Virus record (IMG/VR): IMGVR_UViG_3300027699_000001
Location: 1 to 63,615 of that record
Source of the DNA: a virus
Taxonomy: Duplodnaviria; Caudoviricetes
Strand: one strand, 5' to 3'
DNA: 63,615 nucleotides
Below the pieces are notes generated by a model. That model saw only the letters and a list, made by a program, of their open reading frames with translations. It was not told where the DNA came from and ran no database searches. This document shows, piece by piece, positions 46,354 through 61,508 of this stretch. Position numbers and translations under genes: made by a program. Numbering within the stretch: the stretch's first letter is position 1; every line of letters starts with the position of its first letter.

Positions 46354-48108
46354 CTTACTGTTAAAAACTTTATGAGCGTGGGTAATCAAACTCAAGCTAT
46401 CGATTTTAATAAAGATCAACTAACGTTAGTGCTTGGCGAAAACTTGGATCAAGGAGGTGACGATACAGGAAGTCGTAACGGTACAGGAAAAACAACTATT
46501 ATTAATGCATTAAGTTATGCCTTGTACGGCCAAGCACTAACAAACATTAAGCGTAACAACCTTATTAATAAAACTAATGGTAAGGGGATGTTAGTTACGC
46601 TACATTTTACAATAGAAGGAATAACTTATAGAATTGAACGAGGTCGCGGACCCAACTTACTTAAATTTTTTATTAATAATCAAGAACAAGAGTTAATTGA
46701 TGAATCACAAGGGGATAGTCGAAAAACCCAAGAAGATATTAATAAAATAATATCAATGTCTCATGATATGTTTAAGCATATTCTTGCTTTAAACACTTAT
46801 ACTGAACCTTTTTTAAGTATGCGTACAAATGATCAGAAAGATATTATAGAACAATTATTAGGTATTACTATACTTTCTGAAAAAGCAGAAAAACTTAAAG
46901 ACCAACTTCGTATTACTAAAGAAACAATTACAGAAGAAAAAATAAAAATAAATGCAATAGAAACAGCTAATTCAAAAATTGAAGCTACTATTAAAAATTT
47001 ACAAACTACCCAAAAAGCCTGGCTATCAAAAAAATCTGAAGATATTAAAAAATTACAATCAGGTATTAATGAATTAGAACAATTAGATGTTGATGCAGAA
47101 TTAAATTTTCATGAAAAATTAGGAAAATGGTCTGAACATAATAATAAAATTACGGCTCTTAAAAAAGAATTAAGCACACTAGAGCCTGCACTACAACGTG
47201 CTAACAAGTCTGTTGATAAAGTGTCTAAAGATATCGCAGGATTAGATAATGCAATATGTTATGCATGCGGACAAGAACTTCATGATGATAAAAAAGAAGA
47301 AATTTTATCTAAAAAAACTAAAGAACTAGACGATGCAAAATTATATGCTCAAGAAATTAACGTAAAACTGTCTACTGTTGTATTAGACTTAGAAGAAATT
47401 GGCGACATTAATAAAAAACCAAATACTTTTTATGAAAGTATTAAAGAAGCATATGATCATCGGAGCAATGTTGATAATCTTAAACAATCTTTATTAAACA
47501 AAGAAGAAGAACAAGATCCGTATGAAAAACAGATAGAAGAATTAAAAACTGAAGCAATACAAGAAATTGATTGGGCAATTATAAACGAGCTTGATCTATT
47601 TAAAGAACATCAAGAATTTTTATTTAAACTTTTAACAAATAAAGATAGCTTTATTCGAAAGAAAATTATTGAACAAAATTTATCTTATTTAAATAATAGA
47701 CTTGCTGGTTATCTTAATAAATTAGGTTTGGCACACCAAGTTTTATTTCTTAATGACTTAAATGTTGCAATTACGCAATTTGGACAAGATTTAGATTTTG
47801 ATAATTTGTCACGAGGTGAACGGAATCGATTAATTCTAGGATTAAGTTTTGCTTTCCGTGATGTCTGGGAAAGTTTATATCAACATATTAATTTATTGTT
47901 TATTGATGAATTAATCGATTCTGGAATGGATGCAGCAGGAGTTGAACACTCGTTGGCTGTACTTAAAAAAATGGGGCGCGAAAGAAAGAAAAATGTATTT
48001 TTAATTTCACATAAAGACGAACTAATAGGAAGGGTTAATCATGTTATGAAAGTTATAAAAGAAAACGGCTTTACAAATTATGAAAATGATATAGAGATTA
48101 TAGAATAA
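46336..48108 (+). CDS. gp46: Recombination ATPase subunit, gp46/Rad50/SbcC-like
   Basis: KNFMSVG, Walker A NGTGKT, coiled coil with CYAC zinc hook, LSRGE signature, LLFIDE Walker B, ISH. Confidence 0.96.
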   Translation: MIEIKDLTVKNFMSVGNQTQAIDFNKDQLTLVLGENLDQGGDDTGSRNGTGKTTIINALSYALYGQALTNIKRNNLINKTNGKGMLVTLHFTIEGITYRIERGRGPNLLKFFINNQEQELIDESQGDSRKTQEDINKIISMSHDMFKHILALNTYTEPFLSMRTNDQKDIIEQLLGITILSEKAEKLKDQLRITKETITEEKIKINAIETANSKIEATIKNLQTTQKAWLSKKSEDIKKLQSGINELEQLDVDAELNFHEKLGKWSEHNNKITALKKELSTLEPALQRANKSVDKVSKDIAGLDNAICYACGQELHDDKKEEILSKKTKELDDAKLYAQEINVKLSTVVLDLEEIGDINKKPNTFYESIKEAYDHRSNVDNLKQSLLNKEEEQDPYEKQIEELKTEAIQEIDWAIINELDLFKEHQEFLFKLLTNKDSFIRKKIIEQNLSYLNNRLAGYLNKLGLAHQVLFLNDLNVAITQFGQDLDFDNLSRGERNRLILGLSFAFRDVWESLYQHINLLFIDELIDSGMDAAGVEHSLAVLKKMGRERKKNVFLISHKDELIGRVNHVMKVIKENGFTNYENDIEIIE

Positions 48109-48314
48109 TGATTGAAGACGACACACATGATCTTCTTACTAAAGCATACTTAGAATATTTTAAAGCAAATGATGCTTTTGAATCTAGATTTTCACATCGA
48201 ACTCATGCTGCAAGTCGAAAATGGTTACGAGAAATACGTAGACTTGCTAAAATTCGAATGGAAGAAATACACGCAACATATAAAATCAAGAAAGAGACTA
48301 AAAGAAATAGGTAG
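48108..48314 (+). CDS. Small basic helical protein, possibly Hc1/histone-H1-like DNA binder
   Basis: 68 aa, coupled to gp46; AASRKWLREIRRLAKIRMEEI pattern. Confidence 0.5.
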   Translation: MIEDDTHDLLTKAYLEYFKANDAFESRFSHRTHAASRKWLREIRRLAKIRMEEIHATYKIKKETKRNR

Positions 48315-48327
48315 CGGTAAGTACCAT

Positions 48328-48750
48328 ATGCATTGGACTTATAGGGGTAAATCAGTAAACGAATTACCTGAAGAATGCGAAGGCTTTGTTTATCTAATTA
48401 CAAATCTTACCAACAATAAAAAATATGTAGGCAAAAAACTAGCAAAGTTTAAAACAAGCAAACCACCTCTTAAAGGTAAAATAAATCGAAGGCGTGGATA
48501 CAAAGAAAGTGACTGGAAAGACTATTGGGGTTCTAGTGATCATTTAAATGCAGATGTTTTAAAATTAGGCAAAAACAATTTTACTAGAGAAATTTTACAT
48601 TATTGTCCTAGCAGAGGCGTTTTAAGTTATCTAGAGGCAAAGGAACAATTCGACCGTAAAGTATTAGAAACAGATGAATACTATAACGGTATTATTAACG
48701 TACGAGTAGGCAGTTCAAAAATTCTTACAGAACATCTAAAAAACTCATAG
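48328..48750 (+). CDS. GIY-YIG endonuclease (short, catalytic domain only)
   Basis: GFVYLITN..NNKKYVGKK, DWKDYWGSS, FTREIL, E and YYN motifs. ATG 48328 preferred because the 48169 extension overlaps the upstream gene and TAAGTA lies 4 nt before 48328. Confidence 0.88.
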   Translation: MHWTYRGKSVNELPEECEGFVYLITNLTNNKKYVGKKLAKFKTSKPPLKGKINRRRGYKESDWKDYWGSSDHLNADVLKLGKNNFTREILHYCPSRGVLSYLEAKEQFDRKVLETDEYYNGIINVRVGSSKILTEHLKNS

Positions 48751-48754
48751 GCAA

Positions 48755-49125
48755 GATACAGAACACTGTTTGATCGAGGTTGCTCGATCCACCTTGAGGA
48801 CATAGAATTCTATGTTCAGATGCTGGTGATGTTCAATAGGCTATATGCTCCTAAAAACCCTTTGCAGAGGAACGAAGCAAGGGATAGCGAGAATCTGCGA
48901 TAGCAGTATTTTCGTAATGTCGACGTAGGTTGGGAAAGGTCAGAGCCCGAGGAGCAAGTCAAATACCTACTTCCGATCTCGTCTATGCAAACTCACATGA
49001 AGCGAGAAGATGGAATCTAATAACAGGTTCCGTCTGACTAAACAATCTACATGAAACTTAACTGCTTTATTCAAATAAAAAGTGTTAGAGCAAAGCGAAA
49101 ACACAAATGAGCGTTAGCTCATTTA
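48755..49125 (+). ncRNA. Putative large structured non-coding element (RNA or ssDNA), unassigned; strand assumed
   Basis: ORF-free, GC-elevated gap with at least 7 hand-identified helices and a 7-bp pseudoknot pairing (TGCTCCT 48846-52 / AGGAGCA 48950-56). Confidence 0.65.
49105..49124. terminator. Hairpin between convergent units, possible bidirectional terminator
   Basis: AAATGAGC-GTTA-GCTCATTT perfect 8-bp stem. Confidence 0.5.
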
Positions 49126-49135
49126 TAATATGTAA

Positions 49136-49404: not shown

Positions 49405-50895
49405 ATGCAAGTAAACGAAATTACTGTCACTTCTCGGGAAATAGCACTTTACGAAGAAAAACAAAGGCTTATAGTACTTTACGAAGAAAAACAAAGACTT
49501 GATGAAAAAGAAAAACAAAGACTTGATGAAATAGCACCTTTTATTATTGGTGCAGGTGTTATCCTAGGTAAGCTGTTGATTGCTGCAGGTGTTTCTTACA
49601 TATCTATAGCTGCGGTGCAAAAGATGGTTGATATGTGGCGGCGTTGGAAATTCCAACCCCCTGCTAATGCTATTCCTGACAAATTGAGAATTAAAACTGA
49701 AGGTGTAGGCAAGCACAAAGGTAAATTTTATTGGTGGCAATTTAATGAATCCGAGGGAAAGTGGCGCCGAGTAAAACGTGGTGTCTTTGGTTGGTCGATA
49801 ATCAAGGGGGGAAAATCTAAGACCATGGCGGCTTTTGCAGACCAGCTCGAAAACGCATTAAGAAAAGTCCATTTGATTCACCCGTCCGGTATCGGCGGGA
49901 CTGGGTGGATAAATGCTAAAGCAGTTACTAAAGAAGCGTTTGATTATGCTTATGTAATGTCTCAAGCACAAATTAACCAGAAAGATATGATGACAGCAGA
50001 TGATGAGGCGTTAAAAAAATATAATAGATTAGCAGCCCAGAGCCATAAAGCGAAAGCGTTTAAAGCAACTGCTAGATATTTGAAACATATTGCTCCTTGG
50101 CTTCTATTAATAACTCCTTTCCTTTCTACTATAACATACATCCTGACTTCACGCTCACTTGCAATGAATTATTGGCATCAATATCAAGATCATTTGAAAT
50201 GGAAAGAGGCTGGCAAACCAGAAGATCAAGAAAAAGGAATTAATTTCGCTACATATGCACAAAGAATAACTGATATTAGAGCAAGTGCTGTTATATTCTT
50301 TACGGCAGCAGTAAGCGGCGCAAGTATTGTAGCATTAGGCACAGTTGTTGGAGGTATAGGTATAAAGCTCTTGGGATTGGGTTTAACCAAAGCGGGGGCT
50401 GCGAGTCGCGGAGATGACGTAATAAAACAAGAGTTAGATAAGAAATTTAGAAAACTAGCTGCAAAATACGGAACTAAAATACCCATAGTTAGAGCAGCCC
50501 TCTATTTAAGTGTTCTAGCATTTATACCTATAGGATTTACAAACACAGGAAAAAAATGGTTTTCAAGTCTTCTTACTGATTTTACATTTTTTGGATTCTT
50601 TGACGTGCCTTACGTTACTGACCCGCAAGGAGGTGTACGCTCAGATATTTCAAATTTCGTGGATGATAAATTCGAATGGATGTTACTTAATTGGTTTGAA
50701 ATGTCTGCCATAGAGTTTTGGGGACCGCATGGTTTGGCAGACCCTGGGGAACAGTCTTCATATGCTGCTGATGTTGATCAACAGAAGAAAGATGAAGATA
50801 TCCGGACAGGAATTGAGGATGGCCGACTTATTCCAACTACCGATTCTGATGGCGCGTATCCTGACGGTTGGCTCGATGACGCACCTAAAGAATAG
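49405..50895 (+). CDS. Probable internal head/ejection protein with several hydrophobic segments
   Basis: Late promoter; MQVNEI start; repeated LxE motifs followed by a hydrophobic helix; three more hydrophobic stretches; acidic tail. Confidence 0.5.
   Translation: MQVNEITVTSREIALYEEKQRLIVLYEEKQRLDEKEKQRLDEIAPFIIGAGVILGKLLIAAGVSYISIAAVQKMVDMWRRWKFQPPANAIPDKLRIKTEGVGKHKGKFYWWQFNESEGKWRRVKRGVFGWSIIKGGKSKTMAAFADQLENALRKVHLIHPSGIGGTGWINAKAVTKEAFDYAYVMSQAQINQKDMMTADDEALKKYNRLAAQSHKAKAFKATARYLKHIAPWLLLITPFLSTITYILTSRSLAMNYWHQYQDHLKWKEAGKPEDQEKGINFATYAQRITDIRASAVIFFTAAVSGASIVALGTVVGGIGIKLLGLGLTKAGAASRGDDVIKQELDKKFRKLAAKYGTKIPIVRAALYLSVLAFIPIGFTNTGKKWFSSLLTDFTFFGFFDVPYVTDPQGGVRSDISNFVDDKFEWMLLNWFEMSAIEFWGPHGLADPGEQSSYAADVDQQKKDEDIRTGIEDGRLIPTTDSDGAYPDGWLDDAPKE
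49441..49530 (+). repeat. In-frame tandem duplications (30-nt and 24-nt units) encoding EKQRL x3
   Basis: atagcactttacgaagaaaaacaaaggctt / atagtactttacgaagaaaaacaaagactt / gatgaaaaagaaaaacaaagactt / gatgaa. Confidence 0.9.
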
Positions 50896-61261: not shown

Positions 61262-61508
61262 TGTAATGAGGACGCTCATTACACGGGTTGCAGGGAAGAG
61301 GTGTAGTCGAAGCACCGAACCTGGCTTGTCAGGGGTAGTACCCAGGGGCCTACTCGAAAGAGAACGGTTTCACATTGTGCCTACTAGCACAGGACAAGGC
61401 GTTGCCGCAAAATCGAACAAGGGATTTGGACGGCAGCTGGAGGTAATCCCAAGTCCTTCACCCACCTTTTTTAGAAAGGGCCTAGTACTATTTTGTACTA
61501 GGCTTTTT
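61262..61508 (+). ncRNA. Standalone ~245-nt structured non-coding RNA, unassigned family
   Basis: Own promoter and terminator, clearly higher GC than the flanks, nested helices along its whole length, no credible RBS-led ORF. Confidence 0.8.
61480..61508 (+). terminator. Rho-independent terminator ending the ncRNA
   Basis: GCCTAGTAC-TATTTT-GTACTAGGC followed by TTTTT. Confidence 0.88.

Follow-up and report, generated by a model that had tools for sequence, protein, structure and literature searches.

The gene of the GIY-YIG endonuclease SegB of phage T4 is free-standing and intergenic, lies between tRNA genes among genes of structured RNAs, and encodes an enzyme that targets a tRNA intergenic region and favours the inheritance of that region (PMC2988022; the primary paper, PMC2330249, as referenced there). 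SegB promotes the inheritance of the adjoining RNA genes without any biochemical need of them, and nrdB is among the conserved genes that the seg and mob genes of T4 likewise target (PMC2988022). GIY-YIG homing genes accompany group I introns in T4-type phages as well, and a route has been proposed by which a free-standing endonuclease and an intron become a mobile intron (PMC2988022). Large structured RNAs beside small mobile nuclease genes are further known from the HEARO/omega-RNA systems of IscB and from TnpB (on OMEGA systems see also PMC13565253 and PMC10690162), and small GIY-YIG nucleases of the Ssn type, which have no extra binding domain, recognise folded single-stranded DNA beside their own genes (PMC11893778). 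GOLLD and ROOL are large, elaborately folded and often phage-borne RNAs that were found via covariation (PMC12286853).

Here we describe a large pseudoknotted RNA encoded directly behind a small GIY-YIG gene in a 63.6-kb fragment from an uncultured virus record, the neighbourhood of which is T4-like (the window, meaning the whole stretch of 63,615 nucleotides that was analysed). Large RNAs with conserved pseudoknotted cores are rare, past ones being ribozymes, guide RNAs and self-assembling RNA cages, and the GOLLD and ROOL RNAs are associated with tRNA genes. As at T4 SegB, a free-standing, intergenic GIY-YIG gene is found next to a structured-RNA gene; unlike the tRNAs of the SegB cluster, the RNA is a single large pseudoknotted one, and the nuclease is a domain-only protein. 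The arrangement is also like that of the OMEGA systems, although the nuclease fold is GIY-YIG here and RuvC/HNH there. In comparison with GOLLD and ROOL the RNA is smaller and tied to a nuclease, and it has no sequence or model match in Rfam searches. Whereas the targets of Ssn are multi-copy 28-nt DNA hairpin repeats (PMC11893778), the present locus holds a single 300-nt element with RNA-type covariation, and it lacks the tandem RNA repeats (48751-49135) of type III toxin-antitoxin systems.

Locus and gene neighbourhood

The coordinates of all features are collected in Table 1. Between the nuclease ORF and the converging ORF lie 385 ORF-poor bases; no ORF longer than 48 aa overlaps the RNA element. 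The gene blocks on its two sides converge, and gene turnover in the region is high. The only Rfam match at gathering thresholds in the window is a manA RNA at 61265-61469.

The nuclease matches the Pfam family SegE_GIY-YIG over residues 3-123 (E 4.7e-34) as well as PHROG homing-endonuclease families. Nothing beyond the GIY-YIG domain was found in its 140 residues, as the original prediction had supposed in describing a nuclease without a separate DNA-binding domain. The protein thus has the catalytic domain of Seg-type enzymes, and its relatives occupy varied intergenic sites by conserved genes (gp46, the baseplate-hub block in inverted loci and nucleotide-metabolism genes), as Seg-type genes do. 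The obligate nuclease-RNA co-occurrence that marks OMEGA-type systems was not seen.

Table 1. Features of the RNA locus and its flanking genes (positions in the window)
Feature	Position	Strand	Basis or remarks
gp46, Rad50/SbcC-type, 590 aa	46336-48108		Pfam AAA_23, SMC_N; PHROG 77
Small ORF, 68 aa	48108-48314		After gp46
Nuclease, 140 aa, GIY-YIG-only; candidate Seg-type free-standing homing endonuclease	48328-48750	+	Pfam PF19835; PHROG
5' domain (type A), three-way junction	48761-48834	+	RNAalifold; covariance model R2. Closing stem 48761-64/48831-34; hairpin 48772-78/48783-89; stem 48790-93/48825-28 enclosing hairpin 48799-805/48810-16
Helix a	48846-52/48950-56 (span 48839-48960)	+	Covariation; extension 48839-42/48957-60 in the window's subgroup
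Hairpin b	48858-65/48877-83	+	7 of 7 counted pairs compensatory
Hairpin c	48887-48915	+	4 of 4 basal pairs compensatory
Double-pseudoknot core (k, d, e)	48922-48970	+	Covariation
Helix k, GAC/GUC	48922-24/48939-41	+	100% paired; GUG/CAC and GAU/AUC variants
Helix d, GUAGGU/ACCUAC	48925-30/48965-70	+	2 pairs changed on both sides
Helix e, UGGG/CCCG	48931-34/48946-49	+	2 pairs changed on both sides
Hairpin g	48977-81/49003-07 (span 48977-49007)	+	MFE fold; cognate helix variants
Hairpin h	49009-17/49026-34	+	9 pairs, 1 changed on both sides
Single-stranded 3' tail, conserved	49035-49056	+	Invariant columns, 73 sequences
Terminal module	49082-49124	+	Conserved; purine-rich segment with mini-hairpin (49082-49102), then hairpin (49105-12/49117-24)
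Converging ORF, 66 aa	49136-49336	-	Next gene after the RNA element
Baseplate-hub-like gene	past the converging ORF	-	PHROG 150

Structure of the RNA

The plus strand of the window encodes a structured RNA of ~300 nt at 48755-49056. When folded as RNA, the plus strand of 48751-49135 has a minimum free energy (MFE) of -111.9 kcal/mol compared with -86.7 +/- 5.7 for shuffled sequences (z -4.40; none of 100 shuffles as good), the value for the opposite strand being z -2.29. The G+C fraction is 0.39-0.47 over 48700-49074 compared with ~0.27-0.35 in the flanks. Nearly all of the hairpins that had been drawn by hand are recovered in the MFE fold, and together with the covariation described below these figures confirm the structured element where it had been placed. 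Frequent G-U pairs fit the plus strand only, so that the RNA is assigned to this strand, as had been proposed from the G-T pairs in the DNA; in helix h, for example, one pair is U-G in 50 and C-G in 21 of 73 sequences.

Copies of the RNA share 72-80% nucleotide identity, and covariation is therefore plentiful. RNAalifold predicted 69 pairs with 19 compensatory ones from nine close sequences and, for the 5' domain, 21 pairs with 17 compensatory ones from 28 sequences, including the outlier L176. A covariance model (R1) was built for the RNA core and 80 copies were aligned with it; in this alignment, which was fitted to helices a, b, c and e and not to k, helices a, b, e, k and the base of c had 96.5% of their cells paired, and 23 of their 24 pairs were changed on both sides; none of 500 shuffles came as high, and slid controls had 35-45% of cells paired. 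When 73 copies were aligned with MAFFT alone, helices k, d, e and h were jointly 99.1% paired and seven of their 22 pairs were changed on both sides, which none of 500 shuffles reached (slid controls 27-46% paired). MAFFT misaligns helices a, b and g across subgroups, and the model-based alignment (A5) misplaces the 3' strand of helix d where a sequence has long inserts; helix d was therefore counted on alignment A3, and helices a and b on A5. An alignment-free test of cognate against non-cognate helices separated the two poorly because its windows were too wide and one anchor was misplaced in 8 of the 73 sequences, and only its haplotype tables were used. In a mutual-information scan over all pairs of columns, subgroup structure drowned out any other signal, and the scan was set aside.

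Ten of the eleven pairings of the original prediction are backed by base-pair covariation. The 17 compensatory pairs of the 5' domain lie in GATCGAG/CTCGATC, CACC/GGTG, GAAC/GTTC and the inner hairpin. The crossing pair TGCTCCT/AGGAGCA, helix a, is very well supported; all six of its counted pairs change on both sides, with up to five or six standard types per pair, and at least six different complementary versions are visible. The pairings CCCTT..GC/GC..AAGGG, the base of the hairpin at 48887-48915 and TGGG/CCCG belong to the joint set in the R1 alignment, and GTAGGT/ACCTAC and GATGGAATC/GGTTCCGTC to that in the MAFFT alignment. TCTCG/CGAGA is backed less strongly, by C-G to U-A variants among cognate helices. 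The one pairing that fell is the second crossing pair, GTCAGA/TCTGAC (48939-44/49033-38), which shows zero covariation, is broken in 10 cells and fails at two of the three columns where helix k stays paired through variants. As it is k, a helix absent from the original prediction, that covaries, and as helix d crosses helix a, the fold contains two true pseudoknots, d with a and k with e.

Three parts make up the RNA: a 5' domain that can be exchanged, a core of two pseudoknots whose joining strands are invariant and, on the 3' side, a pair of hairpins. Helix a encloses hairpins b and c and the k/e knot, the 5' strands of helices k, d and e (GAC-GUAGGU-UGGG) are contiguous, and the linkers of the knot core are purine-rich and invariant. 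The 11-nt loop of hairpin b contains an invariant GGAACGA and that of hairpin g an invariant ACUCACAUGAAG (48991-49002). Hairpin c is hypervariable in length among relatives, from two to three pairs with a four-base loop to >100 nt, and hairpin h shows many G-U/G-C/A-U exchanges. The motif ACAUGAA is repeated and flanks the two 3' hairpins, its second copy being AUCUACAUGAA (49045-55) at the end of the 3' tail, which was used as a search anchor. The RNA gene probably extends past 49056 to the hairpins of the terminal module, which probably ends the RNA transcript and serves the converging gene too; a terminator-like site for the latter was scored on the minus strand at 49127-49102.

Distribution and search for known families

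The RNA recurs in at least 158 viral contigs and is common in marine T4-like phages that are abundant but uncultured. It forms a family not described before, or rather a small superfamily whose parts can be exchanged. The 5' domain occurs in three unrelated forms, namely A (that of the window, detected in other loci by covariance model R2), B (longer) and C (short). Ten non-redundant copies form a "far" subgroup in which the type A domain and the 3' motifs are kept around another core that R1 does not recognise. In a further variant (L006, L013, L019-21, L025 and L029) a type A domain is found ~130-210 nt behind the nuclease, again with a different core.

A second large structured RNA was found in 11 loci in which the nuclease lies in opposite orientation behind the baseplate-hub block, with ~670 noncoding bases upstream of it. 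These bases hold an RNA of 115 predicted pairs, 34 of them compensatory, which begins behind a promoter-like site, TTGACA-17-TAGTAT. In architecture its 5' domain matches the type A domain of the window, and the terminal hairpin modules of the two RNAs are similar in sequence, although their cores are unrelated by profile search. The nuclease family thus adjoins at least three sequence-distinct large RNAs (that of the window, that upstream in the inverted loci and the variant typified by L020), which is more than a chance neighbour predicts and leaves room for a functional tie.

No Rfam family (Rfam 15) was matched by the element at gathering thresholds in the window or in eleven related loci. 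At E values up to 10, only four unrelated weak matches were obtained on the region, and three in five related loci. ARAGORN detected no tRNA or tmRNA in the element, blastn against 50,697 GenBank phage records gave no match to the RNA, and no description of the element was found in the literature. The main text of a catalogue of 10,000 candidate viral structured RNAs contains no nuclease-linked motif, although its supplementary tables may list the element (PMC10690425). The earlier description of a ribozyme-sized, pseudoknotted RNA outside the known families is thus upheld.

An RNA-motif pattern scan of 596 Gb of prokaryote genomes gave one real copy among the at least 120 stretches listed, on a T4-like phage contig binned into a MAG, and says little on the presence of the RNA in cells. 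One copy (L176) lies among cellular-type genes with a 240-nt match (70%) to a Methylopumilus genome; it gave no capsid match in a search in which the controls were silent too. On neither strand of the window are the invariant loop motifs enriched at other places, which gives no hint of antisense targets. Inside 48751-49135 neither tandem nor direct repeats were found, and the locus showed no flanking repeats of the Ssn kind.

Linkage of the RNA to the nuclease

A protein search with the nuclease returned 594 relatives in viral contigs, from which 80 loci were kept; the RNA profile matched in 54 of these nuclease-selected loci, always just behind the nuclease. To remove the bias of nuclease selection, the viral collection was also searched with a pattern of two RNA motifs only, which gave at least 119 stretches. 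Among those listed, 103 were the RNA by profile and 16 were chance matches. A GIY-YIG gene lies directly upstream on the same strand in 83 of the 103, while 14 are at a locus edge and six have room for such a gene and lack it, so that 83 of the 89 resolvable RNA-selected loci among the matches listed are directly behind a GIY-YIG gene. When all 158 loci are counted, the nuclease is directly upstream in 138, 14 are at an edge and six are without it. By these counts the two are physically linked in most copies. The pair is kept together when the nuclease is inverted (L072), and nuclease clades agree with RNA subtypes. In a quick tree of 147 columns with many open forks, the number of label changes is 9 compared with 24.8 in shuffles (0 of 500 as low), and nucleases without this RNA are nested among RNA-linked ones.

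Part of this linkage may be a matter of descent. Selection by the small ORF gave 80 loci, in 79 of which the nuclease is next, the remaining one ending too early. All 53 loci that are long enough carry the RNA; the sequences of the other 27, in which it was not matched, stop <=328 nt past the nuclease. Among these small-ORF-selected loci, no allele of the gp46 locus with the RNA but without the nuclease was found. As gp46, the small ORF, the nuclease and the RNA form a fixed block in one clade, shared descent alone would give high co-occurrence. The small ORF co-occurs with the RNA in 106 of 123 loci. It was considered as the partner of the RNA and rejected, as L072, L169 and L176 lack it and one inverted locus has a diverged copy beside gp46.

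The two genes are also found apart. Intact nucleases with 79-84% identity to that of the window occur in other contexts without this RNA, in Melnitz and eight other loci. The nearest cultured relatives by nuclease are OM43 phages, with Melnitz (host OM43 methylotrophs) at 79.3% identity; its nuclease gene lies behind that of the small ribonucleotide-reductase subunit. The same association with ribonucleotide reductase is found in L052, L058, L061, L064 and L065; in L061 and L065 a 282-aa ORF overlaps the nuclease stop, the reductase gene is upstream and no large RNA is adjacent. In L034-36 the nuclease adjoins other nucleotide-metabolism genes. Such neighbourhoods are classic for homing endonucleases (PMC2988022). 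In two loci (L111 and L152) a PD-(D/E)XK nuclease (Pfam PDDEXK_15, E 4.5e-24) and a 71-aa ORF replace the GIY-YIG gene. Two full RNA copies (L169 and L176), whose helices a, b, d, e and k show compensatory changes, are found in unrelated contexts with no nuclease nearby.

Transcription and downstream genes

No promoter-like site was detected on the plus strand in the last 150 bases of the nuclease ORF. Co-transcription with the nuclease, as originally proposed, receives a weak hint from contigs of relatives that bridge the nuclease ORF into the RNA, one from a metatranscriptome (48452-48825) and a second (48555-48995) from a library only guessed to be RNA; DNA carry-over is possible, and the RNA-library contigs cover 48341-48995 only.

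A plus-strand gene starts 97-173 nt past the 3' motif, beyond the terminal hairpins, in 33 of 65 non-redundant loci; in 17 it starts at 335-529 nt, after a small converging ORF like that of the window, and the other 15 have no such gene. The downstream plus-strand genes vary widely in length and have only a short N-terminal pattern in common. This pattern may resemble that of the capsid-targeting leaders of T4 internal proteins. If that likeness holds, the order of Seg nuclease, stable RNA and internal protein would presumably echo the segB / tRNA and stable-RNA / ipII-ipIII order of T4.

Possible roles of the RNA

We give an even chance to the reading that the element is a phage RNA gene in its own right, with a Seg-type homing endonuclease at its side, in the manner of T4 SegB in its tRNA cluster. 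The RNA and the nuclease are neighbours and probably not partners. The working nuclease-RNA partnership put forward in the original prediction is at odds with the closely related nucleases without the RNA, the exchange for a PD-(D/E)XK nuclease and the RNA copies without a nuclease, and the caveat attached to it, that short GIY-YIG genes are common in T4-like phages and that their closeness to the RNA may be incidental, comes nearest to the evidence. The RNA would be transcribed on the plus strand, here as the tail of a gp46 / small-ORF / nuclease transcript, and would be a stand-alone molecule. Its build is typical of molecules that function as RNA, be it as a ribozyme or as a scaffold to which proteins or ligands bind. 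The nuclease would be a selfish, free-standing homing endonuclease at the border of a conserved gene and not a user of the RNA. In a mixed infection it would cut relatives lacking it, and recombinational repair would copy the nuclease plus the neighbouring RNA gene; through such joint copying the two would travel and diverge together without biochemical need of each other. The structure, conservation and strand of the RNA, its linkage figures and the separate occurrences of RNA and nuclease are observed; homing activity, co-conversion and action of the RNA in trans are inferred. In contrast to T4 SegB, no nuclease-free allele was found at the gp46 locus, and plain vertical synteny within one clade would give the same linkage.

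It is unlikely that the RNA is instead a cis-acting leader or UTR, such as a large riboswitch or an antitermination or stability element, for a downstream gene or for the nuclease message. Plus-strand genes do follow at a short or longer distance in most of the 65 loci counted above, the invariant purine-rich linkers of the knot core are like those of many ligand pockets, and in the inverted loci the second RNA and its terminal hairpins lie between the promoter-like site and the nuclease ORF. However, the genes that follow are unrelated to each other (the nuclease in one case and variable proteins in the other), almost a quarter of the loci (15 of 65) lack a downstream gene, and L176 and L169 lie in unrelated contexts. 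In the window the next gene converges on the minus strand, so that there is nothing downstream to regulate.

Still less probable is that the RNA is a working partner of the GIY-YIG nuclease, either lending it DNA specificity as a guide or scaffold or, as an inhibitor, keeping it off the phage's own DNA. The domain-only form of the nuclease, the position of the RNA directly behind it in 83 of the 89 resolvable RNA-selected copies among the matches listed, the retention of the pair on inversion and the agreement of nuclease clades with RNA subtypes would all suit such a role. So would the 11 loci with a different, promoter-led RNA directly upstream, on account of which layouts with the RNA before and after the nuclease both exist. 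IscB and TnpB systems likewise show both layouts. Against this stand intact nucleases of 79-84% identity with no adjacent large RNA (Melnitz, L061, L065), the substitution in L111 and L152, and the solitary RNAs of L169 and L176. Moreover, a guide-like hypervariable end as in OMEGA systems was not seen in the RNA, the variable parts being whole folded domains (5' forms A/B/C and hairpin c), and the RNA has no repeated units as in type III antitoxins. An extended form of the proposal, in which GIY-YIG proteins use adjoining large RNAs as specificity or control subunits and the RNA-free copies are a derived, protein-only offshoot, is in our view a long shot. If true, a homing endonuclease would work together with RNA in a protein fold that is not known to be tied to one, and interchangeable RNA families would be encoded after (window) or before (inverted loci) the nuclease gene.

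It is also improbable that the RNA is a self-processing ribozyme, self-cleaving or derived from a group I intron, as a remnant or precursor of a mobile intron. The locus is like group I introns with I-TevI-type GIY-YIG endonucleases, and like "collaborative homing", in that an endonuclease accompanies a ribozyme-sized RNA with crossing helices enclosing two hairpins (PMC2988022). In our own mapping on the group I architecture, the order a, [b], [c], d, a', d' would correspond to the crossing topology of P3 / P4-P6 / P7, and there are an A-rich joiner after helix a and a length-variable hairpin at a group I insertion position. Unlike group I introns, however, the element has no hairpin between a' and d', the P8 position, and has an extra knotted hairpin (e/k) between d and a'; no group I, GIR1 or ribozyme family of Rfam was matched at E up to 10 by the window and five homologues. 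Evidence of splicing was likewise not seen, nor was an interrupted gene, the upstream ORFs ending at 48314 and 48750 and being followed downstream by hairpins and a converging ORF.

A role of the conserved fold at the DNA level, finally, is very improbable. The region might prime replication or form an R-loop, be a hot spot of recombination, or offer single-stranded hairpins for recognition by proteins. In favour of this, the element lies between converging gene blocks with high turnover, its terminal mini-hairpins could fold in DNA too, and Ssn nucleases recognise such folds beside their own genes (PMC11893778). Against it, the long-range helices and two pseudoknots are kept via one-strand G-U pairs, which fit RNA better, and the Ssn proteins, 94 aa long, come from a different GIY-YIG subgroup and have 28-nt repeats flanking their gene on each side (PMC11893778), whereas no such repeats are present here.

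Significance

Its many natural variants (well over a hundred), rich in covariation, its several interchangeable domains and its one sister family or more make the RNA family ready for structure determination, and it offers an entry point to the functions of early phage RNAs. With an independent RNA gene beside a Seg-type nuclease, the locus would be a clean natural case of homing endonucleases for which RNA genes serve as landing sites and which carry these genes from one genome to another.

Structured RNAs at Related Loci

A second large structured RNA, found in a related viral locus (L009) and with an equivalent region in L007, L012, L014, L015, L022, L024, L026, L027, L037, and L053, has the architecture of its 5′ domain and its terminal hairpins in common with the pseudoknotted RNA of the window. 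It is preceded by a TTGACA-17-TAGTAT site and by an A/T-rich leader with repeated CTAATA, and its predicted fold comprises 115 pairs, of which 34 are compensatory. This second family also ends in a module similar in sequence to the terminal module conserved behind the window's RNA. In the window, this terminal module is also the predicted terminator for the 66-aa gene that converges on it.

Features of the window and of related loci
Feature	Location	Strand	Remarks
Second large structured RNA	L009:2323-2994	+	~600 nt; upstream of the same nuclease family
Complete, divergent RNA copy	L176:7408-7720		Between class II aldolase and cytochrome c genes
Type A 5′ domain, third layout	L020:3597-3689		Also L006, L013, L019, L021, L025, L029
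Terminal module	Window 49082-49124		Purine-rich segment with mini-hairpin, then hairpin with four-base loop
496-aa protein	Window 49405-50895	+	Coding tandem repeats at 49441-49531
Small basic protein 3′ of gp46	Window 48108-48314	+	
	L009:3931-4107	−	
Second GIY-YIG-like ORF, 210 aa	L164:1380-2012	−	Unrelated to the usual nuclease
Usual-nuclease fragment	L164:2129-2215		Residues 109-137

In a third layout (the L020 group), the nuclease stop codon is followed after ~130–210 nt by a type A 5′ domain, the form found in the window. The ~350 nt behind this domain had no match to either RNA profile and are probably another core variant.

The divergent copy in L176 lies near Bax1-I, glyA, and IscU-like genes, with no nuclease among the neighboring genes of that locus. 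The L176 record is 46.9 kb in length, with an estimated completeness of 13%. For the 63.6-kb window record CheckV gave a completeness of 18% which, if correct, implies a genome far larger than that of the OM43 phage Melnitz (141 kb). The sole Rfam match in the whole window was the manA RNA motif at 61265-61469 (+), whose 64.6 bits exceed the gathering threshold of 55.2.

Flanking and Inserted Genes

The tandem repeats of the 496-aa protein consist of 30-nt and 24-nt units near the N-terminus. This protein has hydrophobic stretches and is without a family match, and genes at its position in relatives encode 142 to 492 aa, having only a short N-terminal pattern in common. In both locus layouts gp46 is followed by the small basic protein, which had no match in Pfam or PHROG. 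Its conserved helix, rich in arginine and lysine, suggests nucleic-acid binding. In L164, the 210-aa ORF and the nuclease fragment both sit between the nuclease and the RNA, an arrangement which looks like the insertion of a homing gene into the cassette of another homing gene.
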